A DNA stretch of 64,000 nt from a virus: IMG/VR virus record IMGVR_UViG_3300025834_000005; one strand, 5' to 3'. Position numbers and translations under genes: made by a program. Under the pieces are notes generated by a model, which was given only the letters and a program-made list of their open reading frames with translations, had not been told where the DNA came from and made no database searches. Positions 2,172 to 62,340 of the stretch are shown here, one piece after another; positions within the stretch are counted from its first letter, which is position 1, and the number at the start of each line of letters is the position of its first letter.

Positions 2172-2181
2172 ATATAAATAC
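2172..2181 (-). promoter_or_regulatory. Phage-specific (late-type) promoter motif GTATTTATAT
   Basis: Exact 10-mer in the gene orientation, 12 nt upstream of the gp25-like ATG and directly after a hairpin plus T9 terminator. Confidence 0.6.
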
Positions 2182-2190
2182 AAACAAAAA

Positions 2191-2219
2191 AAAATCCTAA
2201 TTCATTGAATTAGGATTTT
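2191..2219 (-). terminator. Intrinsic terminator (hairpin + T9)
   Basis: The minus strand reads ATCCTAATTC-aat-GAATTAGGAT followed by TTTTTTTTT. It lies between the stop of 2244-2708 and the late motif at 2172. Confidence 0.7.
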
Positions 2220-2243
2220 TCGATATTTTTAAACTATTTACGA

Positions 2244-2708
2244 TCAAGCTTTTGGTTTACGACCACGTTTAATGCCCTTTTCGGCTTTTAACTGTGTTTC
2301 TTCGTCACGAATTTTATCATAAACGCTTTTTACAGACTCTTTGAATGTGATAACCTTGTCGTCACCAAATTTCTTTAAGACACCTGTAAATGTGGTAAAG
2401 TCTGGTTTGTTAAGCGAAACAGCGTCAGTGTCGGATACTGATACACCTGCCAAGCATTCATGCAATGCGATTTTCTGAAATTCAGGAGTTAACATATCAA
2501 ATGCTTTTTCGTTAATAACGATAGCAAAATCGACGCCCTCTGATAACAATACTACTAAATCATTATTTCTAACGATTTTGGTAAGTTCTTTCTGAGTTAC
2601 ATTACAAAGTAACTTAAACACTAACCAACTTGGTAAAGAAGTTTCCTCAACCACCGAATCGAACAATTGTTCTAATTCATCACTTGCTTTTTCAAAATGT
2701 GTTGCCAT
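2244..2708 (-). CDS. Hypothetical early protein with a C-terminal AT-hook; possible degenerate phage-metallopeptidase-like fold
   Basis: 154 aa. The C-terminus GIKRGRKPKA is an AT-hook (RGRKP). The stretch ...FQKIALHECLAGVS...KPDFTTFTGVLKKFG loosely resembles the putative phage metallopeptidase family but lacks an intact HExxH. A host-type promoter lies upstream and a terminator downstream. Confidence 0.35.
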   Translation of the reverse strand: MATHFEKASDELEQLFDSVVEETSLPSWLVFKLLCNVTQKELTKIVRNNDLVVLLSEGVDFAIVINEKAFDMLTPEFQKIALHECLAGVSVSDTDAVSLNKPDFTTFTGVLKKFGDDKVITFKESVKSVYDKIRDEETQLKAEKGIKRGRKPKA

Positions 2709-2741
2709 ACAAATATATATAATTATTAAAATTTAACGATA

Positions 2742-2749
2742 CAAAAGTA
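2742..2749 (-). promoter_or_regulatory. Host-type Bacteroidota -7 promoter box (TACTTTTG = TAnnTTTG) with TTTG 19 nt upstream
   Basis: The minus strand reads gcTTTGatttgagataaatttattaTACTTTTGta. The box lies about 33 nt upstream of the ATG at 2708. Confidence 0.5.
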
Positions 2750-3658: not shown

Positions 3659-3659
3659 A

Positions 3660-7137: not shown

Positions 7138-10100
7138 TTAAACTGGTACTTCCGTAACACGTCCTATTAGAAATAGAGGTTTACGATAAGGTATCCATTT
7201 TTTCAGATCATTTGACATTTTCGCAGTTGCCCCATTATTATCGTTTACAGCAAGAGTTATATGTCTATTATCATTAATAGACCCGAATCCAGAGACGCCA
7301 ACAGCCATAACATTTTCATCAATGGCATAACTCTCGACCTTTAATCTAAGTGTATATCCTAAATATTTCTCATAAAAACTGTCAATCTCTCCGAAATTAA
7401 TTGTCATATGATCACATATAAGTTCAGTGCCACCAGAGGCATTTGTTCTATATTGATTATAATCATCTGGAATCAAATCAGCGAAAGCGTTGCGTAATTT
7501 ATTGATTGATTTATCATCAAGAACAACGGCTGAATATTTTACAAGCTTTTTCTTACTCATTGGGTTTACGGAACTTAGTTCATTAACAGACTCCTCAACA
7601 AATTTATCGTTGGGTTTTACAAATTTATAAAAATCTGGATAATAATTATATTGAGGATTTCTTTTTTTAAAATTTCTTAAATTAGCTATTAACGAGCCAT
7701 CATTCTCATACTCATCATTCATTATCTCATATTGAGCATCACCTAAGCCAAATCCATTGGTTAGACCGATCCTATGCATCAACGTGTATTTTTTTAAGTT
7801 CTCTGTTGAGTAAATCTCGTTACCGCTTGTAAACAATCCAATATTCTCAGCCATTCTTGAATGCGTAAAATATTTATCCTGTAGAGCAACGTAAATGTTA
7901 CCGCTTGGGTCACCAATTGCTCGAACGTCAGCATCAAAATTAGCCAATGATCGTGGATTCTTATATATCGCAATACGATCACTTTTAGTGTCTAAAACAT
8001 ATGCCATAGGCTTTTCTTCCTGTGTCTGCAAATGTGTTTTATACTCTTTTTCAAATTCATCATCCTGATCAGGAATTCCGAATTTATTTGCAGCATATTT
8101 ATCGCCAACGCCTTCTTGGGTAATCTTGGTATCGTTAATTGGTTTATTATCGCTCTTAATATCTAAAAAATATCTATCATAATACCTAAACTGTGAGTTT
8201 TTTTGAATCAGTTTTTTAAATATCTTCAACATAACTATTCTACGATCACTTTCGTCAGCATTTACATAACTACTGGTTGTATCGCTAAGTCCGAATGTAT
8301 TAGTATTACCAACACGATTAAGAAGTAAAAATCGATCAAGATTATCATAAAAACTATCATCGGTAACAGCAAATTTTAAAGCTACCGCCATTTCGCCATG
8401 AATGAAATTACCATTCTTCTGAGCAACATAAATATTACCATAAACATCAGCAATGGCACGTGTAGATTGATCAAAATTACTTAAAGATTGCGGATTTTTA
8501 TATATCCCCACATTTTCACGTATATTATTTACATTATCATAATTTTTAACATATGCTACAGGTTTTTCAGACATTAGTAGGTTATGAAGCTTATAATCCT
8601 TTTCAAACTCGTCATCAGGGTCTGGGATACCAAATTTCTTTTCAGCGTATTTATCTCCGACGCCCTCTTGTTCAAGAGATTCCTGTAAGTTAAAGTTTTC
8701 GCTTGTAGCGTCAGGAACTTTACTAACCATATTTGTAATAGTAATTATAGCTGGATTATACGCTATAATATGTCTAACGCCACCATATTCCTTATTAATT
8801 AGTTGTCCATCAAAACCCAGCTTTGACATGCCTTGAATAAATAATCTGGGCTGATGTCTAAAAAAATCAACCCATATTTGTTGGTATAAATCCTTCTCGT
8901 TATCAGCGTACTCTGACATCATTGAAATCGCTTTAGCAAGTCCTCTGTTTGGGTTTATATCATAATTCTGAGCATCTTCCTTCCATTGAGGAGACATTTT
9001 AATTAAAGATGACATCATAGAGACCGATACAACCTTCTTATTTGCTGCGTTCGTCATCTTACGAGGTCTTAATACAACAGAATAAATATATTCACCATAC
9101 ATATGAGCCTCTTCTTCGGATTCGGTGAAGTAAATTCCAGGGCCTTCTTGATCGGTTGCATTTTCCTTACCGACAAATTCATCAGTAAACTTATCAAATT
9201 TATGCTTACTACCATGATACATAACATATTCGCCACCTTTTATAGTTTCATTTAAAGGTTCATCAGTACCATCTGGTGTGGGTTTATTATCAGAACTAAT
9301 GTATTTTAAAATATCCTCACGATTATTTTTCAGCTTATCAGTGTATATCTTCAATAAAATTTCCTTAAATTTATTCTTTATTTGTTCACCCCTAAAACCA
9401 AGATTCATAAGATCATTACCGTTTACAGGTAAATCTGCATTTGACTTTGGATACTTACCTGACAATAATTCGTCGCAAGCCATTTTTATAGACTTAGGTA
9501 TTATGTTTGACTTTAAAGACTCTGGATATGTTGCGTACATATTATAAGCAATTGATCTGGCTTTATATATGTTTACAGTATTGCCCTCTGAATCGAATGC
9601 AAACTTCAATGCTTTTATTTCCTTATAGGTGTTTATCTCACCACGCAATTTAGTTTTATAGAATTCATCGGGAGCATCTATAGTGTCGCCAATTAACAGG
9701 TAAATAAATTCGCCCATTGTTTTAGCATTCCTAAATAACTCAGCCTTAGAATTGAAATCAACCATTGGGTTAACTCCGAATAATTGTTTGTATATACCTG
9801 TCTCAACCAAAAGATTTGCACCGATTAAATGATCGCCCTTTTGGACTATTTTATCGAATTCAGTTAATATTCTCTCTGATGGTATTTCTCTTATCTTCGA
9901 AACGCTACCCTGAATAGCTTTCATGGTTTCAGGTTCGATTGTAAAACCAAATCTTGAAGCCATCTGAACAGCACGAAGCATACGCAAAGGGTCTTCGGTA
10001 AAAGCCGAAGGATCGACCATTCGAATAATTTTATTACGAATATCATCAACACCGCCAAAAGGGTCAATAACATTACCCTCAATATCGTTAGCTATCGCAT

Positions 10101-11361
10101 TGATTGTTAGGTCACGTCTACGTAAATCATCCTCAATTGGTAATGCATGATCTGATTTTGTCTCAATGCCCTTATGACCACCAGCACCTGTTGCTGTGTC
10201 GGTTCGTGGTATAGCAACATCAATATCCTCTGTACTACCAGTTGGTTTGAATTTCAGAACTCCAAATGATTTGCCCACAAGGTTTACTTGTCCATATTTA
10301 CCAAGTATCTGTTCAAGAGTGTCCATAGGAACGCCTGTGATCATAATATCAAGGTCTTTAGACTCTTTACCTAAATATTTATCACGCACAGCACCGCCAA
10401 CAGAGTATATCTTTCCGCCGAGCTTATTAATCTCAGCAGTGAAAGGTATTTGATCTAAACTATATATTTCGGCTTCATTCAAACTATTACCACTGGTTAT
10501 ATGCGCTTCCAATTCTTTTTTTAGCTCATCAAAATAAAAATCAATGCTTTCACCATCAAGGTCTGTGAAATTACCGTTAACGTCTCTGGCGATTCCGCCA
10601 TTATCATCCCTTTTAAAATATTTATGAATCCAGCCTTGCTGAGACATCATTCCTAAATGATTAACCTTCTGCTGTATTTCGTCAACATAATCGGATAATA
10701 CCATATTACCATTTCTATAGCCAAATTCACGAATAGCTTTAATATCTTTAGCCATTTCTATTTTAAAAGCAGGTAAATCCCTGTTTTTCACGGCAATCTC
10801 CAAAGGCTCTAACAATTTTAAAACCATTTCACTGAATTCGCTATCGCTTGGGTCTACAGATTCGTCAATCGGATTCTTTTTAAAACGAGACTTAATATAA
10901 TTGTTAATAGATTTATCGGTATAGCCAAGTAATTTACCCACTTCCACAGCCTCTTCTGGTGTTGTATCAGCAGCATAGCCATTATGAGCATTCATGTGAT
11001 CACGAAGCTTTAACGCATTTGCCTTATTAGTATAAATAATAAATGATTTTGTACCGTCCTTTCTAATGATAGGAATCGCATTAATGTTATGCATTGATAA
11101 ATTATTCCTAACATCAGCATCAAGATTATTCATAAGTAATAATCCCACGTCTCGTTTACCGTTTATTAATGTATTTACAGTTCCATCAGCACCGTAAGCC
11201 TCACTTGCATCAATTTCCTCATTAACAATTGAACTAATTTTCAGATTGTTCATATCACCCTGATTACATGCGGCAGATTTACCGTTAAGTTTCCCTAACT
11301 TGCATTTATCTTTAACCTCAACTGTTGAGCTATTTTTCATCCAAGATATAATTCTTTTCAT
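7138..11361 (-). CDS. Multi-domain 'polyvalent' protein: unknown N-terminal region + CCA-adding/poly(A) polymerase nucleotidyltransferase + ART-like domain + duplicated unknown domain + C-terminal 2H phosphoesterase
   Basis: 1407 aa.
- aa ~305-700: GGAVRDKYLGKESKDLDIMI, RRRDLTINAIA and EDPLRMLRAVQMASRF are class II tRNA nucleotidyltransferase / PolyA_pol motifs.
- aa ~710-880: YHGSKHKF...GPGIYFTESEEEAHMYGE, an ART-PolyVal-like H-Y-E pattern.
- aa 898-1081 and 1082-1255: two paralogous copies starting QEGVGDKYA(E/A)(K/N)KFGIPD.DDEFEK.YK.H.
- aa ~1270-1407: two HxT motifs (CDHMTI, NRHITL), consistent with a 2H phosphoesterase. Confidence 0.75.
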   Translation of the reverse strand: MKRIISWMKNSSTVEVKDKCKLGKLNGKSAACNQGDMNNLKISSIVNEEIDASEAYGADGTVNTLINGKRDVGLLLMNNLDADVRNNLSMHNINAIPIIRKDGTKSFIIYTNKANALKLRDHMNAHNGYAADTTPEEAVEVGKLLGYTDKSINNYIKSRFKKNPIDESVDPSDSEFSEMVLKLLEPLEIAVKNRDLPAFKIEMAKDIKAIREFGYRNGNMVLSDYVDEIQQKVNHLGMMSQQGWIHKYFKRDDNGGIARDVNGNFTDLDGESIDFYFDELKKELEAHITSGNSLNEAEIYSLDQIPFTAEINKLGGKIYSVGGAVRDKYLGKESKDLDIMITGVPMDTLEQILGKYGQVNLVGKSFGVLKFKPTGSTEDIDVAIPRTDTATGAGGHKGIETKSDHALPIEDDLRRRDLTINAIANDIEGNVIDPFGGVDDIRNKIIRMVDPSAFTEDPLRMLRAVQMASRFGFTIEPETMKAIQGSVSKIREIPSERILTEFDKIVQKGDHLIGANLLVETGIYKQLFGVNPMVDFNSKAELFRNAKTMGEFIYLLIGDTIDAPDEFYKTKLRGEINTYKEIKALKFAFDSEGNTVNIYKARSIAYNMYATYPESLKSNIIPKSIKMACDELLSGKYPKSNADLPVNGNDLMNLGFRGEQIKNKFKEILLKIYTDKLKNNREDILKYISSDNKPTPDGTDEPLNETIKGGEYVMYHGSKHKFDKFTDEFVGKENATDQEGPGIYFTESEEEAHMYGEYIYSVVLRPRKMTNAANKKVVSVSMMSSLIKMSPQWKEDAQNYDINPNRGLAKAISMMSEYADNEKDLYQQIWVDFFRHQPRLFIQGMSKLGFDGQLINKEYGGVRHIIAYNPAIITITNMVSKVPDATSENFNLQESLEQEGVGDKYAEKKFGIPDPDDEFEKDYKLHNLLMSEKPVAYVKNYDNVNNIRENVGIYKNPQSLSNFDQSTRAIADVYGNIYVAQKNGNFIHGEMAVALKFAVTDDSFYDNLDRFLLLNRVGNTNTFGLSDTTSSYVNADESDRRIVMLKIFKKLIQKNSQFRYYDRYFLDIKSDNKPINDTKITQEGVGDKYAANKFGIPDQDDEFEKEYKTHLQTQEEKPMAYVLDTKSDRIAIYKNPRSLANFDADVRAIGDPSGNIYVALQDKYFTHSRMAENIGLFTSGNEIYSTENLKKYTLMHRIGLTNGFGLGDAQYEIMNDEYENDGSLIANLRNFKKRNPQYNYYPDFYKFVKPNDKFVEESVNELSSVNPMSKKKLVKYSAVVLDDKSINKLRNAFADLIPDDYNQYRTNASGGTELICDHMTINFGEIDSFYEKYLGYTLRLKVESYAIDENVMAVGVSGFGSINDNRHITLAVNDNNGATAKMSNDLKKWIPYRKPLFLIGRVTEVPV
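7597..8670 (-). repeat. Intragenic duplication of a ~180-aa domain of unknown function in the polyvalent protein
   Basis: aa 898-1081 versus 1082-1255. Shared blocks in the same order:
- QEGVGDKYA.(K/N)KFGIPD.DDEFEK.YK.H
- IYKNP.SL.NFD...RAI.D..GNIYVA
- (N/H)R(V/I)G.TN.FGL.D
- (S/P)Q(F/Y).YY. Confidence 0.85.
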
Positions 11362-13169: not shown

Positions 13170-13871
13170 TTATTTATAATTTGTAAAACATATTGATATA
13201 TACTCAATTAAATTTGGAACAGTCTCCATTTTTTGTATCTCTTGCATTGTATACCATCCATATGCTGTATGTTCGCCATTTAATTTAACATCCGAATCAT
13301 CGCCATTAAAACGATCAGCGAATATATGCTCGACATTTAACACATCGTCATATGTTCTTTCAATTGTTAATCTTTTTATAATATTGTCAAGTTTAATTCC
13401 AGTTTCCTCATAAACCTCACGTTTACATGCATCCTCTGGTGATTCATCATCCTCTATTTTACCGCCAGCCAAACCATATTTACCAGCAGCCCAACAGTTC
13501 TCGCCTCTTTTTAAAAGCAGAAATTTATTATCCTTATTGGCGATAACACCGAGTGCATTCTCCTGTTTGTTTAAGTTTTCAGATTCATTTAAAGCACCTA
13601 TATTAATCTTTCTTGCTGAATTTAGACTATTATCAACATATTTTTGCATGTCAACGCCACCAGCTAATAAATATTGAACATCATTAGCACCCATTCCAGC
13701 CATATCATGTTTGAGCCTTTTTAATGCTTGGTATGTTAATGTCCTATTTTTTAGAATATACTTAGCCCTACGAATCCCATCGCTGTCAGGATATCTTGTA
13801 ATCGCAGCACTGATGATATTTAAAACATCTTTAGGTACTACGAAATTTTTGCCGTATAGTTCACTATTCAT
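13170..13871 (-). CDS. Nudix hydrolase with a ~110-aa N-terminal extension
   Basis: GGKIEDDESPEDACKREVYEETGI is a perfect Nudix box (GX5EX7REUXEEXGU). The N-terminal ~110 aa are of unknown function. Confidence 0.85.
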   Translation of the reverse strand: MNSELYGKNFVVPKDVLNIISAAITRYPDSDGIRRAKYILKNRTLTYQALKRLKHDMAGMGANDVQYLLAGGVDMQKYVDNSLNSARKINIGALNESENLNKQENALGVIANKDNKFLLLKRGENCWAAGKYGLAGGKIEDDESPEDACKREVYEETGIKLDNIIKRLTIERTYDDVLNVEHIFADRFNGDDSDVKLNGEHTAYGWYTMQEIQKMETVPNLIEYISICFTNYK

Positions 13872-14464
13872 TTAGCCTCTATTAAGTTTTTTAGTTTATC
13901 TTTTGATTTGTTATCTAATCTATTAATCAGTCCAGCTAATTTTGAAACGCTTTTGTCTGACATATCATGATCATTAGTCTTTGCTGATAGAAAATTTTCA
14001 GGTTTTTTTTCGATAATAATATCCTCGTCAACAACTGATTCGTCAACACTCTTTGGCTTACTTTCGAATTTTTTTACAATCTCTTTAGCATACACCTCAA
14101 AATATTTTACAACATCCTTGGAGATCGTTTCCTTTTCAGTATAAATTCTATAGTCATTTTTCAGATTATTTGGATTTTTATAGTAGTATTTCATGATTTC
14201 TTCATAGAATTTACGAAGAATATCTAAAGTATCTGTCAAGTCTTTATTCTTCTCGTCAGAACCCTCGCCCTCAAAGAATGGTAGCATGACAGAACCAAAA
14301 TATCCCATCATGCTATCACCAAACGGCTGATGTCCCACAGCCATATTATAATCTGTAATTTTTTTCGATACAGTGCTCATATTAGAACCTGTTTTTGGCG
14401 TGTTATCGTTGCCTATCAGACTCCCATCGCTATCTATAACCTCATTTATAAGACTAACTTTCAT
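13868..14464 (-). CDS. Hypothetical protein (first gene after a GTATTTATAT motif)
   Basis: 198-aa ORF. The motif at 14482-14491 lies 17 nt upstream of the ATG. There is a 4-nt overlap with the Nudix gene. Confidence 0.5.
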   Translation of the reverse strand: MKVSLINEVIDSDGSLIGNDNTPKTGSNMSTVSKKITDYNMAVGHQPFGDSMMGYFGSVMLPFFEGEGSDEKNKDLTDTLDILRKFYEEIMKYYYKNPNNLKNDYRIYTEKETISKDVVKYFEVYAKEIVKKFESKPKSVDESVVDEDIIIEKKPENFLSAKTNDHDMSDKSVSKLAGLINRLDNKSKDKLKNLIEAK

Positions 14465-14481: not shown

Positions 14482-14491
14482 ATATAAATAC
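14482..14491 (-). promoter_or_regulatory. Phage-specific (late-type) promoter motif GTATTTATAT
   Basis: Exact 10-mer, 17 nt upstream of the ATG at 14464. It heads the accessory operon that contains the Nudix and polyvalent genes. Confidence 0.55.
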
Positions 14492-17500: not shown

Positions 17501-18203
17501 AAAAATCCTGAATAAGGTTTCGCTCTTCTTGGTCATCATCCTTTTTCTTAGCTTCAAGAATGATCTCAAAGCCACGATTATCACGAACACCGATAGCGAA
17601 CATTCGTTTCAACTGATATTTTAAACCAGTTGTCTCGATATCGAAGACTACTTTATGAACGTCCTTATATTCCTCAAATCCTTTGAATAGTCTTGATTTT
17701 GTGGACATAAAAAACTGTTCGGTAGTTCTCGGAGAAAAGAAAAGATCACGGTATAAGTAAACTGGTTCATCCCTCTCATCTTTAATAACCCTACCACGCT
17801 CATCTTTCAATTTTTCATATGGATTAACATTCGCATCCTTTAAGAAATTAACAATTGAGTTGTATGACTTGTTACTCGTAAGCTTATAGCAATAGCCATC
17901 AATTAGTCGTCGCTGATTACCTGTCTCAAGTTTAGTGATCTCAACGCCATATTGAGCCAGCTTATTCTCAAGCAAATCAGGCATTTGGCTAAATAAATTA
18001 ACACCATTTTTCTCCAAATCCTTACAAAACATAAACGGTTGGTATTGTATTTTCGCAATCCTCGGTTTTGTGTTCGGCTCATGTATTACACATTCAGCGT
18101 AGTTGAAATTAGGGTTTGTCTCAACGTTTACAATATATTTTAAATCGTCATTATAGCCCTCAAGAAAGCCTTTTATCTCGCTTAAAACAGCTGCTTTATC
18201 CAT
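14514..18203 (-). CDS. DNA polymerase, family B
   Basis: 1229 aa. Exo I VFDIETTG; Exo II YNSENFDFDF; Pol motif A DYASLYPM; motif B KILNNSLFGALG; an apparent motif C variant LLAITDGVNF. There is a long C-terminal extension of about 300 aa. Confidence 0.9.
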   Translation of the reverse strand: MDKAAVLSEIKGFLEGYNDDLKYIVNVETNPNFNYAECVIHEPNTKPRIAKIQYQPFMFCKDLEKNGVNLFSQMPDLLENKLAQYGVEITKLETGNQRRLIDGYCYKLTSNKSYNSIVNFLKDANVNPYEKLKDERGRVIKDERDEPVYLYRDLFFSPRTTEQFFMSTKSRLFKGFEEYKDVHKVVFDIETTGLKYQLKRMFAIGVRDNRGFEIILEAKKKDDDQEERNLIQDFFNLLMYLQPAVICGYNSENFDFDFILGRAEILNMDLSGIPMAVDKRSTPIKRRPNVSVKYGNVSDKYVATEMWGYSIIDIMHAAKRTAAVNTEIKNTKLKYISKHEGIAKANRMYVEGDVISDFYYDNKLFFIDDNNAYIEIPAELQEVGGELYSLQLNRGNYTDDQYNDAKKKLFADNKEFVVWLKAEAIPRKMFKLIDGQSIIKQYLLDDLWETEQVDELYNQSSFMLAKIVPTTYQRVCTMGTASIWNLLLTAWSYDNGVAIPYSEKKEGFSGGLSRCFRTGFTRRWVKIDYASLYPMIQLTDDIFPIFDITGVIKKMLFYLTTTRNIYKKLANSDEINEEEVYILSQIDHDTYHKYTNQTLTTEDRKMFKIKQLPIKILNNSLFGALGSGVSFNWSDNICAARITCTGRLHLRHAIAWFSDYKCVPLLAITDGVNFQIPDTTNIIIGDNVDVLDYMVEVPIPIEEAWKFKGKTGITALIDKYNDQEQIAAKIREKQSYISVDNDGEFISCLNLSRNNYAIMSESKDKKSGKMKEKIKMVGVTIKSKVMSEYIEEFIDKGLDMVLHGRGVDFVNYYYDYVDQLYYQQIPMKKIASKNKVKVKLDQYINRGNTKNGSKKPKQAHMELLIEERNHIASELFNEHFDELNLDNSAKGWSIEQKMKLISNYMPPEPEIDSVVYQINTGKKVADSSSGRDEKTGELYSKLIHASDLAMNPNMTGDYNVQKYLAAFNKRVAILLAGFNPEISGQILAKIVKKKTKDTFGKSVVIEELKKNVFMDHELTLDSYPLDSIEESLQLEDREAIFWNKTGYDPRLIWDGFHVTPENMVYFDVYESALKFVNQKMIDAGKPLIKSINEKHVKGDYILIKNNLQYWVGFHNGSYIKMVKEVKDVPKSETELMIEEKRKSVEDKLKNLKASISEKTDKELFIENKNNKRVRYYAKFKKQFSLEFKKLEEFVVAYGDEGLSMLDTFIEGIEADARPDDTDVIDVDSF

Positions 18204-20098: not shown

Positions 20099-20118
20099 TC
20101 ATTGTCAAATATATTTTA

Positions 20119-20523: not shown

Positions 20524-20533
20524 ATATAAATAC
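20524..20533 (-). promoter_or_regulatory. Phage-specific (late-type) promoter motif GTATTTATAT
   Basis: Exact 10-mer, 15 nt upstream of the ATG at 20508. Confidence 0.55.
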
Positions 20534-45225: not shown

Positions 45226-45235
45226 ATATAAATAC
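45226..45235 (-). promoter_or_regulatory. Phage-specific (late-type) promoter motif GTATTTATAT
   Basis: Exact 10-mer, 16 nt upstream of the tape measure ATG (45209) and directly after a hairpin. Confidence 0.6.
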
Positions 45236-45236
45236 A

Positions 45237-45269
45237 AAAGGAACTAAATTATAATAACTTAGTTCCTTT
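45237..45269 (-). terminator. Hairpin/terminator between the chaperone region and the tape measure promoter
   Basis: 11-bp stem AAAGGAACTAA / TTAGTTCCTTT with an 11-nt loop. On the minus strand it is followed by TGTATTTAT (U-rich) and runs into the late motif. Confidence 0.5.
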
Positions 45270-45272
45270 TTT

Positions 45273-49882: not shown

Positions 49883-50626
49883 ATGAAAAAGAAATATGAA
49901 TTATACTTCGCCGAAAAGGAGGATCAAGCTGTAATAGACTATATAACAACTGATTCCGCTGAGGAAAAGAATAGAATTTACAATGAGATATTGGTTGTAC
50001 CATTTAGTAAAATGATACAATCAATACTTAGAAAGTATCCTATATATATTGGGAACTATGATGTGGCTGAGGTTGAGGAAAACGCTTTAACCCACCTCAT
50101 TGAGCAAATGGTTAAATATAAACCGAATACGATAACAAAGGCAGGGTTTAAAACAAAAGCTTTTAGTTATTGCCAGACGATTGTACGCAACTATTATAAG
50201 GATCATGGTAGAAAAAGCTACATTGATAAAAAAACAAATTTATCGTATGAAGATTATACCGACGATTTTGATAATAGCTCGTCATATGCGTATGAAATTG
50301 ACGGTGATAATAATGTCGATATTCTCGATAACCTTATTCAATCTATAATCACTGAAATCATTGAAAAAATATCACAGCCCAATATTAAGAAAAATGAGTT
50401 AATTGTTGGCGATGCTATTATTAATATTTTACAAAATTGGGAATCTCTATTTAAAGAGGAAACACCTGATGGTAAATATAATAAGAGAGTTAGTAATATT
50501 TTTGCGAAAAATAAAATACTTCTATACCTGAAAGAGATAACAAATTTATCAACTAAAGAGATTAGAGTAGCCATTAAGCCTTTTAAAGAACTGTATTATA
50601 TGAAGAAACAGAGTTTTTTCTTGTAA
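49883..50626 (+). CDS. Phage-encoded sigma-70-family-like (ECF-like) transcription factor
   Basis: 247 aa. The region-2-like stretch ...AFSYCQTIVRNYYKDHGRK resembles F..wl..I..N...D..Rk. The region-4-like HTH is ...LYLKEITNLSTKEIRVAIKPF. Confidence 0.55.
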   Translation: MKKKYELYFAEKEDQAVIDYITTDSAEEKNRIYNEILVVPFSKMIQSILRKYPIYIGNYDVAEVEENALTHLIEQMVKYKPNTITKAGFKTKAFSYCQTIVRNYYKDHGRKSYIDKKTNLSYEDYTDDFDNSSSYAYEIDGDNNVDILDNLIQSIITEIIEKISQPNIKKNELIVGDAIINILQNWESLFKEETPDGKYNKRVSNIFAKNKILLYLKEITNLSTKEIRVAIKPFKELYYMKKQSFFL

Positions 50627-50639: not shown

Positions 50640-50649
50640 GTATTTATAT
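50640..50649 (+). promoter_or_regulatory. Phage-specific (late-type) promoter motif GTATTTATAT
   Basis: The only plus-strand copy. It lies 14 nt upstream of the ATG at 50664 (baseplate hub operon), so the motif orientation follows gene orientation. Confidence 0.6.
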
Positions 50650-50663: not shown

Positions 50664-51026
50664 ATGACAAGACCTGTAAGAAAAAGAATTAAGTTTGATG
50701 AGGATAGCATGAATGATCTTTTACAAGAGATTTATGATGACTCTCATAATATTAGACAGAAAGCCATTAGATTATTTAATAAGTGGGAAATAAAGATTAA
50801 GGAAACTGGCGAGGTTGCCGCTATCGGTGATCAGCTGATAAAACTTATAGCAGCTGAAGCTAAAAATCAGGATCAGAAAATTCTACTTTTAAAATATTTG
50901 AAGGAAGTTGTCTTTGACTCAAAAAGCAAGGAAGTTGTTGGCGATGAGGATAAAGGCGTCGTTAGTAATGAGCGTAAGCAAGCTTTAATTGATATGGTTC
51001 ATGATGAGTTAGATAAAAGGTTATAA
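50664..51026 (+). CDS. Hypothetical protein (first gene after the plus-strand GTATTTATAT motif)
   Basis: 120-aa helical protein. The motif at 50640-50649 lies 14 nt upstream. Confidence 0.5.
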   Translation: MTRPVRKRIKFDEDSMNDLLQEIYDDSHNIRQKAIRLFNKWEIKIKETGEVAAIGDQLIKLIAAEAKNQDQKILLLKYLKEVVFDSKSKEVVGDEDKGVVSNERKQALIDMVHDELDKRL

Positions 51027-52935: not shown

Positions 52936-53823
52936 ATGTATACCGAAAAAACAATACATACAAATAGGATATTCACAAGCGGTGCTGACCATAGTGATAA
53001 TACGAGATCAATCTATTATGGCGAGGTTATATCCATTGATGACCCTACCGATGGCGGTAGAATAAAGGTAAAAATACTTGAATTAGATAATAAAATCGCT
53101 GAAAAAGAATTACCTTATTGTAGTCCTATTTTACCTAAGTATATTCATTTATATCCTAAAATAGGTGAAGTTGTTAGAGTTTTTATAATGGATGTTAAAT
53201 ATCCTAATAGAAATAGATTATGGCTTGGTAGTGTCATATCACAACCTCAGAAAATAGAATTCGATTCAGTATACACAGCATTATCAACCACTGAAATGGG
53301 TATGATTGAGCCGTTAAAGTCAATTAAGACGAACCCAAATGCTAAGGATGTGTTTCCAGATAGTGAAGATATTGGTATTATAGGTAGAGTTAATACAGAT
53401 GTGATTCTAAAAAAGAATCAGGTTGTGATAAGAGCTGGAAAACATGTCAATGGCGATATAACTACTCTCAATACAACGAACCCAGCTGCGTTGATAATGA
53501 CATTTGAGCCAAAAATTAATAGTACAGATTATTATAGTAGTTCAATTTTAATGTCGGATAAAATTGCTTTATTATCTCACGATGGAAATCCTAATTTTAA
53601 GCCATCGAGACTTACGGCACAGGATAGGATTAATATATTTGAAAATGGTCACCCGATAGGTAGAGGTGATGTTATTCTACAAATTTTTGAAATGTTTAAA
53701 AAGGCATTATTAACACATAGACATGGTTACTCAAATACTCCGCCGTTAGCTGAACCCTTATTAACGGATATTGAGAAATTTGAATTAGAAAAACTTCTAC
53801 AGAAAAATATCGTAACAAATTAA
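52936..53823 (+). CDS. Baseplate central spike/hub protein (gpV / gp5 OB-fold, VgrG-like N-terminal domain)
   Basis: 295 aa. YYGEVISIDDPTDGGRIKVKILELD...LPYCSPILPKYIHLYPKIGEVVRVFIMD matches the Phage_base_V/gp5 OB-fold pattern (G.V...dDP...gRvkV......wa.p.....P.vGd.V.v.F). Confidence 0.7.
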   Translation: MYTEKTIHTNRIFTSGADHSDNTRSIYYGEVISIDDPTDGGRIKVKILELDNKIAEKELPYCSPILPKYIHLYPKIGEVVRVFIMDVKYPNRNRLWLGSVISQPQKIEFDSVYTALSTTEMGMIEPLKSIKTNPNAKDVFPDSEDIGIIGRVNTDVILKKNQVVIRAGKHVNGDITTLNTTNPAALIMTFEPKINSTDYYSSSILMSDKIALLSHDGNPNFKPSRLTAQDRINIFENGHPIGRGDVILQIFEMFKKALLTHRHGYSNTPPLAEPLLTDIEKFELEKLLQKNIVTN

Positions 53824-53875: not shown

Positions 53876-54364
53876 TTATACGTTAAGTATGCATCTCCAA
53901 GGTTGAATTTTTACATTCACTGTAGCAAGACCGTCATCATCATAACTGTTTTCTCCGAAGTCAATGGATACGATCTGGCACTGCTCTAACAACCATTTTT
54001 CAACCTCAACACCTGTTGGGTCGAGAGCGAACACTAAAAGGTCTTTTTTATATCCAGCAGCATAACCCATACGTCCAGTTAATGACTCTACATGAAGACG
54101 AGTCCATTCCATAAGTTGCTGTGAAGTCGATGGCCCGATTACATCAAGGAATGTAAGGTCAATCTCTTGCCAAGCATATGCACCTGCGACATAATTTGTC
54201 TCATTCATAAACTTGACCTCTGTTTTATTTATGTTCAATGCTGGTCTTTTTGCTTTCTGAATAGACCATACTTCAATTCCTAATTCGTCTGGAAAACGTA
54301 CATAGAATCTGTTTATGCGTTTTGGTTCATATGCTAAAGGAATCCCCCTAATTAAATCTGCCAT
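53876..54364 (-). CDS. Tail tube protein (T4 gp19-like)
   Basis: 162 aa, immediately downstream of the sheath gene. The N-terminal ...PKRINRFYVRFPDELG...VWSIQKAKRPALNINKTEV... is typical of the gp19 tube family. GTATTTATAT motif upstream. Confidence 0.75.
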   Translation of the reverse strand: MADLIRGIPLAYEPKRINRFYVRFPDELGIEVWSIQKAKRPALNINKTEVKFMNETNYVAGAYAWQEIDLTFLDVIGPSTSQQLMEWTRLHVESLTGRMGYAAGYKKDLLVFALDPTGVEVEKWLLEQCQIVSIDFGENSYDDDGLATVNVKIQPWRCILNV

Positions 54365-54377: not shown

Positions 54378-54387
54378 ATATAAATAC
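54378..54387 (-). promoter_or_regulatory. Phage-specific (late-type) promoter motif GTATTTATAT
   Basis: Exact 10-mer, 13 nt upstream of the tail tube ATG (54364) and directly after the post-sheath hairpin. Confidence 0.6.
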
Positions 54388-54438: not shown

Positions 54439-57222
54439 TTAAATCTCTGAAAACGATGCGCCAGATGCTGCAATCGTGAAACCGATTCCGATCTTTTCAA
54501 GTGAACGAGTAGGTTTTAAATAAATCTCACCATATAACTCATTTCTATCTAAAGACTCAGGAGTGTTTAAAGTTTCATCCATTACAACCTTAAATTCTAA
54601 CAAACCTCTTTCTCTTTTTATACCATCCAAAATCGGATTTGTTTTTAATTTGAATTGATCGATAGTGGCTTGATCGTTTTGATCAAATATAAGTCTCATG
54701 GCAATGTTTGAAATTAATACTTTAACCTGAAGTAATAATCTTCTAACGTTTATTCTATCAAGAGCACTTTCTCTAATCTGTAATGTTTTCTGACCAAAAA
54801 TAGCTGTGCCAGTGTTTGTGAAATCTACCATAGGATTGATTCTACCTTTGCCGAGAATATCACGAGCATCTTGACTTAGTTTATATTTCGATCTTCTCGC
54901 ATCGGTAACACCACGTTCTAAACCAGCTGGTGCAAACCAAGGTGCTTTTTTTGTATCAGTATAAGCGATTGCTTTAACAACCTCACCTGTAGGTGGAAGA
55001 TACACATTTACATTATTCTGAGTATCTTTAACCTGAACATATGGGAAATATGTGCATGCGTAGCTACTATCAATACCTGTACTATCCAAAAGATCAACAA
55101 TATCATTCGATGCTACAACATCTGTATTATTATTATCGCCGATTGCCATTGATATATCAATGTTTGGTGCATCGATAATATATAAGCTATCTGTTCTCTG
55201 TTCTTCGATCATTTCAATGGTTTTTGTAACCAATGTTGTATTATCTGACCAGTTGATTGCAGGTGTTGCAAATATGTTTATCGTTACCTTCTCAGGGTTT
55301 GAATATGTATTTATAGCAGTTTCCCATGCCTGATAGTCATTTGACGGTGTAATTCCATCATCTACGCCATCATATAAAGCAGACTTGTTGTAAAGGTCTG
55401 TATTGGTGCGGAAAGTTCTGTTAATATCCCATCCATCAAATCCACCAGAAAGTGCAAATGTAAATTTTCTTGTTTTTATAGAGTAGTATGCATTTGATTG
55501 ACTGAAAACATCAAATACTGTTTTAAAGCTGCTTACGCCAACTTCAAATTCAACAGGTTCAAGGGTATTTGTTAATACACTTGCAGCATCTACGTCCATG
55601 TGGAAACCCTTAGTTTTTGTAAAACCAGTAGGATTGCTTTCGCCACTCTTCCATCCGTTAAAATTAAACATATTCTGATTAATACCCGAACCTGCGGTAC
55701 TTGTTGTACTATAAGCTGTGTTAGATATTCCTAAATAAGTTTTAGCAACCTTATCAGTGTATGTGTAGTTTGATTTGTAGTGAATTTTTGGTGATATGAT
55801 ACCATTATTATAAGTATTGAACATATAACCTTCAAATCCAGCTGGAAATGATTCAGGAGTAATGCTATCAGCTAATTCAATCATAACATAGCTGCTCATA
55901 AGATCGTAATTCTCATCAATAGTCCCGATTCTCTTACCAATATAATTGGTTTTTGTTTGGATCAGTGAACACCTTGAAAATGATTCAAGTACATTTGGAT
56001 TCGCATCTGTGTCATAGAATGATCTAATCAATACATCAAATTCAAGAGATTCTGGGTTAATATTTACAATACTAACTTTAATTTCTTGATTAGCAGAGTC
56101 ACCGTCAGAAATTGAGATAAATCTAAACAATCTATCAACAATATTACCTTTTAATTGAGATACTACCCAAGGTGATTCAGGTGTTTTAAACATTGTTTTA
56201 CGATTCGTAAAGATATCGTTTGTATGTTTTGTAACGATATCAGATACCCCAAAAGCATATGGAGATACGCCAGATAAATTTGTATCTGATGTAAAATCAA
56301 TACCATCAACATCTAAAGTCTTGATAAGGTCTGGATATACAGATTCTACCCAAATATGTGTCTGTTTATCTGTTGGCGTTGTGCCTAATACATTTGAAAT
56401 GAAATTACTGCTATTAGGATTTAAAGACACATTATATGTGGCTGTTCCACCAGTTGGTAGATCAGAATTAATTGCTAATGTAGCTGTTATTGTGAATTCG
56501 CCAAATAAGTCTCCAGATAAATCATTAGTGTTATTAGTTGTTATGTTAATGTCTGTTACAGCAAATATAGTGCTTGATGGTGCATTTACGCCGTCGATTA
56601 CAACCGCCTTACTTCTAAGAACAGCTAATACCATGTTTTGATGATCAGCATAAGGCGCACCTGTCAAAGTTGTTTTTACGAATGAGACAGTGCCTATTTT
56701 TCCTGTAATGGCTGTAACTTCGAAAGTATAATAATCACCTGCAAATGTTCCTAAATTTAAGCCAAAACCATTGAAGGTATTACCTGTCTGACCTATAGAC
56801 GTTAAATTTACGCCATAAAAAGTACCATCAGTGAATCCTGATGTACCACTAACAACTGTCGTACCTGACACTGTTGAAGGGTCAACGCCAGCATTTAGGA
56901 CAACTGTCCAAGCAGCACCAGCATCATATCCTGACAACCCTAATACTCTGGTAACCCATAGTTGATTAGACTCCTGTAAATATGAATTGGCAACATATGG
57001 TAATTGATATCTTAAGTTTCCATTACTATATTTAGAAGTATCTTGTCCTCCAAATTTATTTAAAAATTGAGGTCTATCTTCGATGTAAAATGGCTCGAAT
57101 GCAGGGCCTTTTAACGTTTCGCCCACAAGTCCAAGCGTTGTAACACCAACATTACGAGTAACATAGGTTAGATCACGTTCCTTAAACTTGACCCCAGGCG
57201 AGGTAAAAATAAATTCAGTCAT
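54439..57222 (-). CDS. Contractile tail sheath protein
   Basis: 927 aa. The N-terminal FTSPGVKFKERDLT and the C-terminal ...INPMVDFTNTGTAIFGQKTLQIRESALDRINVRRLLLQVK match conserved sheath termini. Confidence 0.85.
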   Translation of the reverse strand: MTEFIFTSPGVKFKERDLTYVTRNVGVTTLGLVGETLKGPAFEPFYIEDRPQFLNKFGGQDTSKYSNGNLRYQLPYVANSYLQESNQLWVTRVLGLSGYDAGAAWTVVLNAGVDPSTVSGTTVVSGTSGFTDGTFYGVNLTSIGQTGNTFNGFGLNLGTFAGDYYTFEVTAITGKIGTVSFVKTTLTGAPYADHQNMVLAVLRSKAVVIDGVNAPSSTIFAVTDINITTNNTNDLSGDLFGEFTITATLAINSDLPTGGTATYNVSLNPNSSNFISNVLGTTPTDKQTHIWVESVYPDLIKTLDVDGIDFTSDTNLSGVSPYAFGVSDIVTKHTNDIFTNRKTMFKTPESPWVVSQLKGNIVDRLFRFISISDGDSANQEIKVSIVNINPESLEFDVLIRSFYDTDANPNVLESFSRCSLIQTKTNYIGKRIGTIDENYDLMSSYVMIELADSITPESFPAGFEGYMFNTYNNGIISPKIHYKSNYTYTDKVAKTYLGISNTAYSTTSTAGSGINQNMFNFNGWKSGESNPTGFTKTKGFHMDVDAASVLTNTLEPVEFEVGVSSFKTVFDVFSQSNAYYSIKTRKFTFALSGGFDGWDINRTFRTNTDLYNKSALYDGVDDGITPSNDYQAWETAINTYSNPEKVTINIFATPAINWSDNTTLVTKTIEMIEEQRTDSLYIIDAPNIDISMAIGDNNNTDVVASNDIVDLLDSTGIDSSYACTYFPYVQVKDTQNNVNVYLPPTGEVVKAIAYTDTKKAPWFAPAGLERGVTDARRSKYKLSQDARDILGKGRINPMVDFTNTGTAIFGQKTLQIRESALDRINVRRLLLQVKVLISNIAMRLIFDQNDQATIDQFKLKTNPILDGIKRERGLLEFKVVMDETLNTPESLDRNELYGEIYLKPTRSLEKIGIGFTIAASGASFSEI

Positions 57223-57255: not shown

Positions 57256-57265
57256 ATATAAATAC
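57256..57265 (-). promoter_or_regulatory. Phage-specific (late-type) promoter motif GTATTTATAT
   Basis: Exact 10-mer, 33 nt upstream of the sheath ATG (57222). Confidence 0.55.
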
Positions 57266-57372
57266 TATTTATTACGCTAAAAGATTGAATTACAAAAAAA
57301 TTTGTTAGCGAATTGATGTCGCTTTTTTATAAAAAACAAAAACGAGTATTTATCATTGAATATATAAATAGT

Positions 57373-59517: not shown

Positions 59518-59521
59518 AACT

Positions 59522-60802
59522 ATGGACAATAAATATAAAATATTAATAAATAAGGCTAAAAATATTGATTCGGTTAATACCGATACCAATATTAGAATAG
59601 AACTTACCAGAAAATCTGATTCGGTTGAAGAATCTGAGTACGATAAGAACGTTAGCTCCACCGATGTGTTCAATTCTGAGAGAGAGTCTAATAATAATTA
59701 TCGAATATATGGCTCAATCGAATATATGTCAATGTTGAACGGTATAAAAAACAACTTAAGTGCAGCCAGTAGAGATGACTACTTTATAACTGTTACTGGC
59801 GATACAAAAAGCCTTTTAAACTCATTTGAATTTTACCTATTAAAACCAAAAGTGGCTTCCGCTTATTCAGGTGTTACGGCAAGCACATATACCAGATATT
59901 TTGATGTTATAGCTAAGCCAGAAGATTTCGACGTGTATAATGCTGGATTTTCGAAGAATGTTTACGGCGATCAGAAATTCTCATTTGTGATTAATAAAGA
60001 TATCAAGGAAAATGATTTAGAAATTACTATCAATCCAGATACTCTAATGCCTTTCGGTAAATTTTATGAAAGAAATAATTTACCTGTTACAGAACTTTTT
60101 ATTTATGCTAAATATCTTGTAGGTGTCGGCGAAACAATGCAAGGACTATCTTGGGATATAAACGGTAATCCTATAACAGGTTCTACAAGTATGAGCGACT
60201 ATATGTCGATGGATATGTCAACATTTTCGCAATCGGGCGTATCAACACAGATTAATTATATTAATACACCATATATTGAAACAGGATCAACTAAATACTT
60301 CTCATGGTACTATTCTCCAATGATTCCTGTTAGAATAAATATGCTTAGCGATGAATTATTTAAAGTTGGATATCAGAAGGTAATTATATCTGGAAATACT
60401 ATTAACAGCAGTCCAACAAGTCCATTACCTTGGAGTTATGACCCTGTAATACCTATAGAACTTGGCGTATTATCAGGAAACACGTTCGATGTATATTCAG
60501 GAACAACTTCATATGATTTAATTAACTCAATGCCTGAACATGCTTATAATTTAGGTGATGGTAATTTTGTTTGGAGAAATATACTTCCGCAGAATTATAT
60601 TAATCCTGTAACAAGTGTTACGCTTAATAATCCATTCATGAATGGCAATAGATATATATTCAGTAGTATTATTTTGGATGTTAAAGCAAATAAGGGTGTA
60701 TTAAATACGGCAAACCTATTTAGTAATATAGGATTTAATTTTCAGAGTGTAAATAATGTTCCAGTTAGTGATATAAATGATATAGGTAAGCCATGCAAAT
60801 AA
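59522..60802 (+). CDS. Hypothetical structural protein
   Basis: 426-aa ORF co-directional with the preceding structural gene and 4 nt after its stop. Confidence 0.5.
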   Translation: MDNKYKILINKAKNIDSVNTDTNIRIELTRKSDSVEESEYDKNVSSTDVFNSERESNNNYRIYGSIEYMSMLNGIKNNLSAASRDDYFITVTGDTKSLLNSFEFYLLKPKVASAYSGVTASTYTRYFDVIAKPEDFDVYNAGFSKNVYGDQKFSFVINKDIKENDLEITINPDTLMPFGKFYERNNLPVTELFIYAKYLVGVGETMQGLSWDINGNPITGSTSMSDYMSMDMSTFSQSGVSTQINYINTPYIETGSTKYFSWYYSPMIPVRINMLSDELFKVGYQKVIISGNTINSSPTSPLPWSYDPVIPIELGVLSGNTFDVYSGTTSYDLINSMPEHAYNLGDGNFVWRNILPQNYINPVTSVTLNNPFMNGNRYIFSSIILDVKANKGVLNTANLFSNIGFNFQSVNNVPVSDINDIGKPCK

Positions 60803-61563
60803 AAAAGGTAGTAAGATATGTGGGTAGCGATGTTGTATTCAAAATACCATTATCTAATAATATGAATACTGTGGGGTCTGACGGCGATATCGATAAGATT
60901 GTTGATAGAGTTGAACCATTGTTTATAAATCCTATCGTTGATAACGAGGTGAAGAGGATTATGTATGAGTCAGGTGTAACCGCAAACATCAACTTCAAAT
61001 ATTATAATTATAGCGGTAGCACGTATACAACATCGCTTATAGATAGTGGAAACTTTACGTTATCCGAGTATGATTCGTATGATCAGAAATTATTAAACAG
61101 TTTCTACATATTTGACGTATTTGATAGCCCTAATGTTTTAAAACAGAGCAGAATATATCGATCATATCTATCAAAAATACATGTTGATAATGCTTTTACG
61201 ATATCAAATAGAACGAATCAGTTGAATTCTATATTTATTCCGTCTTATTTAGTGCAAAGCGACACTACCGAATATTACGGTAGACTTATGTTCTATAATG
61301 CAAAAAGAAATCGAATAATTACATTTTATAATGAATCACATAATGGTGATACCGTTACAATTAATAAAATGTTTTTTAAGCTATCTGTTAACTCAAATAC
61401 GAAAAGATGGTATTTTACAGAACCAGCTAATGCTATAGAAATTGTTGAGACTGGAAATGCTTTTGTTAATAAAGTAAACAGCAGCATGGAAGGTTTTGAG
61501 GTTATAAAACCTGTATATGCCGCTGGTACTAAATTTGATTACACGAATATTGATTACGTTTAA
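60793..61563 (+). CDS. Hypothetical structural protein
   Basis: 256-aa ORF overlapping the upstream gene by 10 nt. Confidence 0.5.
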   Translation: MQIKKVVRYVGSDVVFKIPLSNNMNTVGSDGDIDKIVDRVEPLFINPIVDNEVKRIMYESGVTANINFKYYNYSGSTYTTSLIDSGNFTLSEYDSYDQKLLNSFYIFDVFDSPNVLKQSRIYRSYLSKIHVDNAFTISNRTNQLNSIFIPSYLVQSDTTEYYGRLMFYNAKRNRIITFYNESHNGDTVTINKMFFKLSVNSNTKRWYFTEPANAIEIVETGNAFVNKVNSSMEGFEVIKPVYAAGTKFDYTNIDYV

Positions 61564-62321
61564 GAAAAACTAAAACCAAGTTTTGGTGGTCTTTTTGATT
61601 TGGATATTTCGAAGTCTTTCTCGTCTTGTATAAAACCCATTAAATTTATGGTGTATTTTGTCACGAATAATCTTTCGCCTTCAATATTTTCAATAGGATT
61701 ATTTTCAGCAACGTCTTCGAATACCAAAGGCATTGGGTGATTCTTAACAAAAACAAATGCTTGACTTGACGCAAATGCTTTCAATGTTTGTTCATCGAAT
61801 AAATTAATATCTACACGATATTTAGTGAATAGTGATATTTCAAATTTTAGATCGACATTAATAGGCTCAGGAGTTTTAAATAAAAGATAAATTAATTCAC
61901 CATTATCCATTATAGGAACTTCGTAGAATCTGAATTTTTTTAACTGTGGTATCAAATATTTAATAGCACCTAATCGTGTGCCTTTGCCTTTTTCAGTTCG
62001 TCTCACAGTAATATAAGGTGTTGCTATATTTTTATCACCATCTGAAAATTTCCATGTCTTTGAAAATTCACCCCATCTATCATTATCAAGATAAAAACTT
62101 GGTACAATCTTACCATCAATAACAAGTTTCATTTTTTCACTGTTAACGAAATCGAATATAGCTGTATCTAAATCCTCAAGCTGTATGGTTCTCGGTAAAT
62201 ATTTAGTATTGATCTTTGTATCATTCATTAATTTCTCGATCCTATCCAAGCCATAATGCATGTAATCAGTTCCTATAATAGGCGGATTTGTATCGATAAT
62301 AATTCTTTTTGGTAATGACAT
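61560..62321 (-). CDS. Hypothetical late (probable virion) protein
   Basis: 253-aa ORF. The GTATTTATAT motif at 62331-62340 lies 9 nt upstream of the ATG. Convergent 4-nt overlap with the plus-strand gene. Confidence 0.5.
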   Translation of the reverse strand: MSLPKRIIIDTNPPIIGTDYMHYGLDRIEKLMNDTKINTKYLPRTIQLEDLDTAIFDFVNSEKMKLVIDGKIVPSFYLDNDRWGEFSKTWKFSDGDKNIATPYITVRRTEKGKGTRLGAIKYLIPQLKKFRFYEVPIMDNGELIYLLFKTPEPINVDLKFEISLFTKYRVDINLFDEQTLKAFASSQAFVFVKNHPMPLVFEDVAENNPIENIEGERLFVTKYTINLMGFIQDEKDFEISKSKRPPKLGFSFS

Positions 62322-62330
62322 ACTTTTTTA

Positions 62331-62340
62331 ATATAAATAC
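62331..62340 (-). promoter_or_regulatory. Phage-specific (late-type) promoter motif GTATTTATAT
   Basis: Exact 10-mer, 9 nt upstream of the ATG at 62321. Confidence 0.5.

Follow-up and report, generated by a model that had tools for sequence, protein, structure and literature searches.

A conserved box, (A)GTATTTAT, lies directly upstream of a set of mainly structural genes in a 64,000-nucleotide (nt) stretch of viral DNA (IMG/VR record IMGVR_UViG_3300025834_000005; hereafter, the window). The box is probably a promoter element that acts at the DNA level and defines a phage-specific, mainly late class. Such a class had been proposed in an earlier sequence-only reading of the window, and the position, orientation, and conservation of the box, a test in flanking DNA, and the adjacency of terminators all support it. 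Considered jointly, the evidence suggests that (A)GTATTTAT is likely a -10-type late box, used by the host RNA polymerase (RNAP) core together with a phage protein of the sigma region 2 type. The chances that the product of the open reading frame (ORF) at 49883-50626 is the protein that reads the box with the host core are about even. We infer promoter activity, start site, late timing, and reading protein from sequence comparison.

Box copies and target genes in the window

In an unbiased Markov-3 scan, GTATTTATAT was the top over-represented 10-mer of the window, and its extended form AGTATTTATAT occurred nine times versus 0.32 expected. The 10-mer is present in 12 exact copies, 11 on the minus strand and 1 on the plus strand, compared to 1.09 ± 1.01 copies (maximum, 4) in dinucleotide-preserving shuffles of the window, none of 100 of which gave 5. 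All 12 positions listed in the sequence-only reading were recovered, and its estimated chance level of about one agrees with the shuffles. The reading had also placed 11 copies 9 to 33 nt upstream of starts in gene orientation. When recounted, the distances are the same: a same-strand ATG follows 11 of the 12 copies after 9, 12, 12, 13, 14, 14, 14, 15, 16, 17, and 33 nt. On a mechanical gene map of the window (59 genes, 6.4% intergenic DNA), the probability of finding at least 11 of 12 copies in intergenic DNA is approximately 1.6e-13, with the intergenic share taken as 5.5%.

Although the enrichment of the 10-mer stands, its exact form is too strict, as the core is better described as an 8/9-mer with a downstream A-patch. 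One-mismatch variants of the 10-mer are at background (27 versus ~23 expected), and the 8-mer GTATTTAT is found 21 times versus 8.9 expected. Nine of these copies are intragenic, as many as expected from background, and the excess of 12 consists entirely of intergenic, co-oriented copies. The excess was thereby also checked for equal frequency inside genes or in either orientation, and neither was found. Every one of the 12 sites has the orientation of its target gene, and the box precedes the ATG by 11 to 19 nt at 11 of them. About 12 of the 59 genes carry a box, mostly those with a larger upstream gap or an upstream terminator. No sequence beyond the box and the A-patch is shared among the 12 window sites, and a repeated mobile cassette of hairpin and motif was rejected on this ground. 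Other over-represented G/C-containing 8- to 10-mers are scattered in the window (CAGGGCCT, with 5 copies versus 0.04 expected, TCCTGATCA, TAGCGATG, and CTGGTATAGG) and are probably coding repeats of fiber or baseplate genes.

The targets had been described as mostly structural. Annotation supports this for the gp25-like wedge, the tube, the sheath, the gp5-like hub operon, and tail proteins, and weakly for the tape measure, but not for the genes behind the copies at 14482 and 20524. On the minus strand, the copy at 2172-2181 lies 12 nt 5' of the ATG of the gp25-like baseplate wedge gene (1767-2159), directly after a hairpin. Copies at 54378-54387 and 57256-57265 are located 13 nt 5' of the tail tube gene (53876-54364) and 33 nt 5' of the tail sheath gene (54439-57222), respectively, and the copy at 45226-45235, which abuts a second hairpin, is found 16 nt 5' of the tape-measure-like gene (42702-45209). 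Two more minus-strand copies precede a 430-amino-acid (aa) gene (copy at 42671-42680, 12 nt 5' of 41366-42658), followed by a tail-protein gene (38890-41361), and a 999-aa gene (copy at 35270-35279, 14 nt 5' of 32256-35255), followed by a wedge-subunit-like gene (31951-32259). The plus-strand copy at 50640-50649 is positioned 14 nt after the stop codon of the sigma-like gene and 14 nt 5' of gene 50664-51026, the head of a hub operon that includes the gp5-like gene 52936-53823.

This copy had been considered the only plus-strand site, but the variant AGTATTTATca at 57345-57353 (+) adds a second one. It was missed by the exact 10-mer search, is orthologous to a minus-strand site at position 9346 in the closest relative (L001), and lies 19 nt 5' of an in-frame ATG at 57373 in a 714-aa gene that is divergent from the sheath gene. 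This ATG is probably the correct start, rather than the mechanical TTG start at 57313. Between the divergent copies at 57256 (-) and 57345 (+), a palindromic hairpin with T-runs on both strands is present (57307-57323). A hairpin with a T-run 5' of the sheath box is also kept in relatives, though no upstream gene there needs termination.

The remaining copies are all on the minus strand. The one at 62331-62340 is found 9 nt 5' of a 253-aa gene (61560-62321), and its orthologous site in relatives reads AGTATTTATATAAAAA. The copy at 29724-29733 lies 14 nt 5' of a 58-aa gene (29533-29709) that heads a run of small genes. The copy at 14482-14491 precedes, by 17 nt, an unannotated 198-aa gene (13868-14464), which is followed by NUDIX hydrolase and tRNA nucleotidyltransferase genes. 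The copy at 20524-20533 lies 15 nt 5' of an unannotated 129-aa gene (20119-20508). The previous label of this gene, BppU-like, has no annotation support. The gene sits within the replication module, between DnaB-like helicase and helicase/DNA polymerase genes; the module comprises a DNA polymerase gene (14514-18203), helicases, an exonuclease, and a UvsX-like recombinase. Finally, the exact intragenic copy at 26981-26990, inside ORF 26633-27988, has no A-patch behind it and is followed by an ATG in another frame. By chance, one such copy is expected, and this one probably arose that way.

Several other features of the window were recorded. A 384-nt noncoding gap (35256-35639), unusually long in an approximately 94% coding genome, separates the 999-aa gene from a divergent Ant-like anti-repressor gene (35640-36437, +). 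On the minus strand, 7138-11361 encodes a 1,407-aa fusion of PolyA_pol/tRNA nucleotidyltransferase domains with an ART-PolyVal domain. A tRNA scan found no tRNA genes.

Flanking DNA, related phages, and box architecture

The window corresponds to approximately 98.3 to 162.3 kb of ENA contig ERZ27245488 k141_1156773 (328,453 bp). Via the outermost window proteins, 18.1 kb of new flanking DNA of the same contig was obtained, bringing the inspected DNA to 82 kb in total. Scanning beyond the window, as the sequence-only reading had advised, again placed the box upstream of starts: five of the six GTATTTAT copies in the flanks are intergenic and co-oriented, 15 to 34 nt before starts. Three of these five precede genes without family matches, which follow the gp25-like wedge gene in what is presumably the baseplate/fiber region. 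The fourth precedes a 375-aa gene, and the fifth precedes a 442-aa gene heading an operon with the Pfam Gp23 major capsid gene, beside the S77 prohead protease. As four of the five sites read GTATTTATTA, the core is an 8/9-mer and not a 10-mer. These Gp23, 442-aa, and S77 genes form a T4-type head module to the right of the window (L113:17241-20480), and thymidylate synthase and UvrD helicase genes lie between this module and the window.

Relatives were collected from IMG/VR by means of the sheath protein (52 to 77% identity; contigs of up to 357 kb, with 25 to 40% G+C). Upstream of the sheath gene, AGTATTTAT is kept in every such relative, 35 to 66 nt from the ATG, while the flanks have diverged. 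A start codon lies ahead of almost every intergenic copy in these loci. In 80 further loci, found via the sigma-like protein and totaling 1.04 Mb, 165 of 176 unique sites are intergenic, compared to a crude intergenic fraction of 16%, and 124 of the 176 have a co-oriented ORF start within 100 nt. Overall, the core is conserved at orthologous positions with diverging flanks across about 100 related metagenomic contigs, and in relatives the box and the start are 11 to 66 nt apart, with the distances falling into two broad classes. Immediately behind the sigma-like gene, the hub-operon copy is kept as GTATTTATATGTACTAAAACTAT, and TATTTATA persists even in its rare variants CTATTTATAT and GGTATTTATAA. 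In six loci (L040, L041, L056, L061, L104, and L108), an extra gene, whose product contains …GHGNCMQAAIASL…, lies between the sigma-like gene and the hub operon and displaces the box.

Judged by capsid and sigma-like protein, the nearest cultured relatives are Flavobacterium phage vB_FspM_immuto and Microcystis phage Mel-JY01, next to uncultured huge phages. A megablast of 24 kb against the phage collection gave no match. With tblastn, the sigma-like ORF had no match at an E value of ≤1e-5 and weak matches to immuto, Mel-JY01, and LR756508 at an E value of ≤1. The likely hosts are Bacteroidota, except for Mel-JY01, which appears to infect cyanobacteria. In the first 150 of the 160 kb of immuto, where the DNA is 93% coding, 24 of the 28 coding-strand TATTTATA copies are intergenic. 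Boxes of the form [AC]TATTTATA[AT] stand 10 to 25 nt before the terminase, portal, sheath, tube, and tailspike genes of this phage, and one directly follows its sigma-like gene, gp118. In Mel-JY01, ATATTTAT[AG]TAT precedes the tube and sheath operons, often after hairpins, and the ribosome-binding sites are ordinary GGAG sequences. The sigma-like gene adjoins a late operon in all three lineages (window family, immuto, and Mel-JY01).

These results bear on the trivial explanation that the box is a compositional or chance artefact. The genome is A/T-rich (32% G+C), and its intergenic regions are even more so. However, the copy number in the window far exceeds that in the shuffles, the motif contains a fixed G, and its one-mismatch neighbors are not enriched. 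The uniform orientation, the orthologous conservation across about 100 contigs, and the successful prediction in flanking DNA also speak against it. The artefact explanation, with next to no probability left, is refuted by the statistics and the conservation.

Alignment of 280 unique family sites delineates the element. An A is found at -1 in 75% of the sites, GTATTTAT is invariant, and three weakly constrained positions follow. Downstream is an A-patch, with A in 69%, 90%, and 76% of the sites at +11 to +13, i.e., 4 to 6 nt after the last core T; positions +8 to +19 are 68 to 98% A+T. No -35 element was seen: the information content is ~0 from -60 to -13 in the 280 sites, and likewise in the 12 window sites. 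Based on the alignment, the functional core appears to be (A)GTATTTAT plus the conserved A-patch 4 to 6 nt downstream, without a -35 partner.

Two box copies adjoin terminator-like hairpins on the minus strand. The hairpin at 2189-2221 (15 pairs and a T-run) closes the upstream unit just before the copy at 2172. The stem of the other, at 45236-45270 (16 pairs), ends immediately before the motif G of the copy at 45226, leaving 26 nt between stem and ATG, 10 of which are the box. Matches to an E. coli-type sigma-70 promoter (TTGACA-17-TATAAT) numbered 130 versus 104, 126 versus 111, and 102 versus 102 in shuffles, and none is conserved at the motif sites. Similarly, the Bacteroidota -7 box TAnnTTTG is not contained in the motif and is not enriched in the window (104 versus 94) or in its intergenic DNA (9 versus 7.2 ± 2.6). 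It occurs at 2742-2749 (-), 20106-20113 (-), 23002-23009 (-), and 35600-35607 (+), 20 to 33 nt 5' of four genes without the motif. The idea that TAnnTTTG serves as the promoter of motif-less genes, four or five of which it precedes, was dropped because of the lack of enrichment. Given the terminators and the absence of other conserved elements, the box is the only conserved signal between terminators and start codons.

This context also bears on whether the box could be the site of a late activator or regulator beside a weak host-type promoter, instead of a core element. An asymmetric monomeric DNA-binding protein could explain an exact, orientation-specific upstream element, and the modeled helical C-terminal domain of the sigma-like protein may be able to bind DNA. 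However, the box is neither palindromic nor repeated, and no -35 or TAnnTTTG sequence is conserved near it, nor are sigma-70-type matches enriched. The 16 nt that the copy at 45226 leaves between terminator stem and ATG beside the box itself also argue against this explanation, which we consider unlikely.

Shine-Dalgarno cores precede only 6 of the 59 genes, and G does not exceed 12% at any position from -23 to -4, in line with the Shine-Dalgarno-independent initiation suggested by the earlier reading. Together with the tight spacing to the ATG, this scarcity would also suit an RNA-level element in the 5' untranslated region, either a translation enhancer replacing the Shine-Dalgarno sequence or an endonuclease processing site. 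Mapped T4 5' ends, too, can stem from processing (PMC2988020), a caveat that favors the latter. Unlike a general translation signal, however, the box is confined to about a fifth of the genes and tied to larger gaps and terminators. In relatives, its distance to the start varies widely, and the copies at 2172 and 45226 are positioned directly behind terminator hairpins, where upstream transcripts should stop. Moreover, Mel-JY01 has the box in addition to ordinary Shine-Dalgarno sequences. An RNA-level role is thus very unlikely.

A candidate specificity factor

The sigma-like ORF at 49883-50626 (+) encodes a protein of 247 aa, with a predicted sigma-70 region 2-like N-terminal domain and a helical C-terminal domain. 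Its family numbers 637 representative clusters, and the protein is 63 to 85% identical among relatives whose sheath proteins share 52 to 77% identity. The gene is not preceded by the box and is located at the end of a divergent, PhoH-led gene cluster. Both properties fit a factor that is made before late transcription.

The sequence-only reading had called this ORF sigma-like. Its family is indeed linked repeatedly to sigma-70 region 2 and T4 gp55, although the links are sub-threshold. NCBIfam sigma70-ECF matches have E values of 8.6e-5 to 1.6e-3, and the window protein scores 18.1 bits against NCBIfam TIGR02937 (cutoff, 42.9). Pfam Sigma70_r2 (PF04542) is matched by 16 of 48 diverse family members (best E value, 5e-7), and the window protein itself has no Pfam match. 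PHROG 234 is matched by 7 of the 48, and T4 gp55 matches the same PHROG at 3e-69. When the family profile was compared to the PDB, SigA (E value, 0.04), SigK, an ECF sigma, and gp55 were matched, all over one region; PDB sequence searches with the single protein or a shallow profile gave nothing significant. An hhalign comparison of the family to T4 gp55 is collinear (P = 6e-4). A first structural model (predicted local distance difference test [pLDDT] score, 66.6) had sigma-E region 2 (2map) as its best compact match, with a probability of 0.92 and a target TM of 0.62. For a second model (pLDDT, 89.5), the top matches were WhiG, FliA, and SigA domain 2, below significance. Among viral models (BFVD), the nearest structural neighbors of the ORF product were phage sigma factors, also below significance. 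These lines of evidence, each individually weak, converge on a sigma-like identity.

Some relatives (L058:4483-5555, and also L060, L063, L068, L082, and L098-L103) carry a short tandem paralogue of approximately 125 aa after the sigma-like gene. It consists of the sigma-2-like N-terminal domain only, with 27.6% identity to residues 9 to 124, and is nearer to T4 gp55 in size. The longer match in some relatives proved to be this paralogue, so that an intron or intein interrupting their sigma-like gene was rejected. Close family members end in …EK[IM]DY[LFM][DE]D (e.g., …IDYLDD), resembling the clamp-binding tail of gp55, …SLDFLYEAND. In the window, the C termini are …KKQSFFL for the sigma-like protein and …DVIDVDSF for the DNA polymerase. 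The 82 kb examined yielded no homologue of gp33 or of a sliding clamp.

The complete immuto genome offers a further comparison. It contains no gp55-like ORF (best E value, 0.23) and a member of the sigma-like family at 4.5e-36. It also informs the possibility that the box is a promoter of a phage-encoded RNAP, either single-subunit or noncanonical multisubunit, as in phiKZ, AR9, and N4. Short, exact, single-block promoters are typical of phage RNAPs, the window belongs to a jumbo genome of 328 kb of which 82 kb was inspected, and noncanonical RNAPs encoded by other jumbo phages are precedents. On the other hand, these 82 kb hold no RNAP-like PHROG or Pfam match. Immuto has the same box class and no annotated RNAP, and the RNAP catalytic motif DFDGD is present in none of its ORFs. 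The conserved position of the sigma-like gene beside the late operon in all three lineages is a further point against a phage RNAP, which we deem improbable.

Comparison with T4 late promoters and implications

T4 late promoters have a tightly conserved 8-bp box at -10, A/T-rich downstream DNA, and no -35 element; recognition of the box, TATAAATA, is by gp55 (sigma domain 2), together with gp33 and the gp45 sliding clamp (PMC2988020). gp55 flips out the nontemplate bases -12, -9, and -8 (PMC7892883). In gene orientation, TATTTATA is identical to TATAAATA at six of eight positions, with the central AA changed to TT. Aligned in this register, the A residues at -12 and -8 would be kept and the AA at -10/-9 replaced by TT. 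Because the TAT and ATA flanks are mutually complementary, the box with this change exactly matches the T4 box in reverse complement, and the core AGTATTTAT is the reverse complement of ATAAATACT. The sequence-only reading had stated that the motif is not the T4 late box and contains its reverse complement. The second part is correct and is the same relation viewed from the opposite strand, but the likeness to the T4 box, in view of the identity in the same orientation, is greater than this statement allowed. Compared to the template strand of the T4 P23 late promoter, the window 11-mer AGTATTTATAT has 10 of 11 bases in common (PMC7892883), which we regard as the same reverse-complement fact plus two coincident bases.

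An inverted T4 late box, at which a divergent sigma-like factor reads the template strand or docks in reversed geometry, has very little probability. A two-base AA-to-TT change in a near-palindromic box, with ordinary nontemplate recognition, is more economical. To our knowledge, template-strand promoter recognition has been described only for the noncanonical RNAP of phage AR9.

The likeness to T4 extends beyond the box sequence. Both systems have a single, tightly adhered-to A/T-rich box of 8 to 9 bp of the -10 type, without a -35 element and with A/T-rich downstream DNA. The box fronts virion genes, and the sheath, tube, gp25, Gp23 capsid, and S77 protease genes of the phage are of the T4 type. 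A small putative sigma region 2-type protein is encoded nearby, with a hydrophobic/acidic tail in close relatives that recalls the clamp-binding tail of gp55. The position of the A-patch is compatible with a T4-like start ~6 nt downstream of the box. In contrast to T4, exact TATAAATA is not matched here, and a G, with a preceding A, is fixed before the box. The candidate factor, at 247 aa versus 185 aa for gp55, has an extra helical C-terminal domain and no significant pairwise similarity to gp55, and initiation here appears to proceed without a Shine-Dalgarno sequence.

We therefore return to the late promoter proposed above, which would operate as follows. The promoter would consist of a single element without a -35 partner, with TATTTATA at -10. 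Transcription would probably start in the A-patch, after the three weakly constrained bases. This would leave leaders of ~5 to 14 nt (~29 nt in the case of the sheath gene), whose translation would not involve a Shine-Dalgarno sequence. The predicted reader is the host RNAP core carrying a phage sigma region 2 protein, for which ORF 49883-50626, as a counterpart of gp55, is the best candidate.

Several observations weigh against this proposal. A spacing of 11 to 19 nt to the ATG is equally expected of an element in the mRNA, and two to three copies precede nonstructural or unannotated genes, so that the class is not strictly late. The ~244 kb of the genome outside the inspected 82 kb might hold a gene for a canonical gp55, a different sigma factor, or a phage RNAP. 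The window sigma-like protein is below every curated threshold in Pfam, PHROGs, and NCBIfam, its pairwise BLASTP comparison to T4 gp55 is not significant, and an E value of ≤0.001 was reached in none of three fold searches, even with the model of pLDDT 89.5. In addition, its second domain may be sigma-4-like; such a domain normally goes with a -35 element, but the sites show none.

Clade-wide boxes upstream of late genes have been found before by comparative genomics. The in silico late consensus of the T4-family phages KVP40, 44RR, and S-PM2 is a -10-type box of this kind, and Aeh1 deviates at -13/-12 (PMC2988020). Whereas these four lineages keep an ATAAATA core and a recognizable gp55, the family described here has TATTTAT(A) and no recognizable gp55, as checked on complete immuto. 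With phage ECF-like, sigma-24-like, and late sigma factors (e.g., Bacillus SPO1-type, Synechococcus phage S-CBWM1, and Tenacibaculum phage PTm1), the group that supplies its nearest BFVD neighbors, the candidate appears to share a two-domain, all-helical architecture and a similar size. It differs from them in that there is no significant match, and two-domain sigma factors normally read -35/-10 promoters, while no -35 element is conserved here. Bacteroidota housekeeping promoters carry TTTG at -33 and TAnnTTTG at -7. The family probably shares with them both the host range and A/T-rich leaders without Shine-Dalgarno sequences, but its box is unlike TAnnTTTG.

In the literature on these sequence strings, on immuto, and on Flavobacterium phage late promoters, we found no description of this element. 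As far as the searchable literature goes, the box sequence, the clade, and the divergent two-domain factor are new, whereas late boxes conserved in front of structural genes are already familiar. The box would define a late or phage-specific promoter of a widespread uncultured family of T4-like phages of 240 to 365 kb and link it to related boxes in cultured Flavobacterium and Microcystis phages. It could be used for operon calling and temporal-class prediction in metagenomic phage genomes and as a source of phage-controlled expression parts for Bacteroidota, and the cultured Flavobacterium phage immuto makes the prediction directly testable. More broadly, the results suggest that a deep branch of the T4 superfamily replaced gp55, or remodeled it into a two-domain sigma-like protein of larger size, and that two bases of the late box changed to match. 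If true, this replacement would represent a natural experiment in the coevolution of sigma factors and their promoters.

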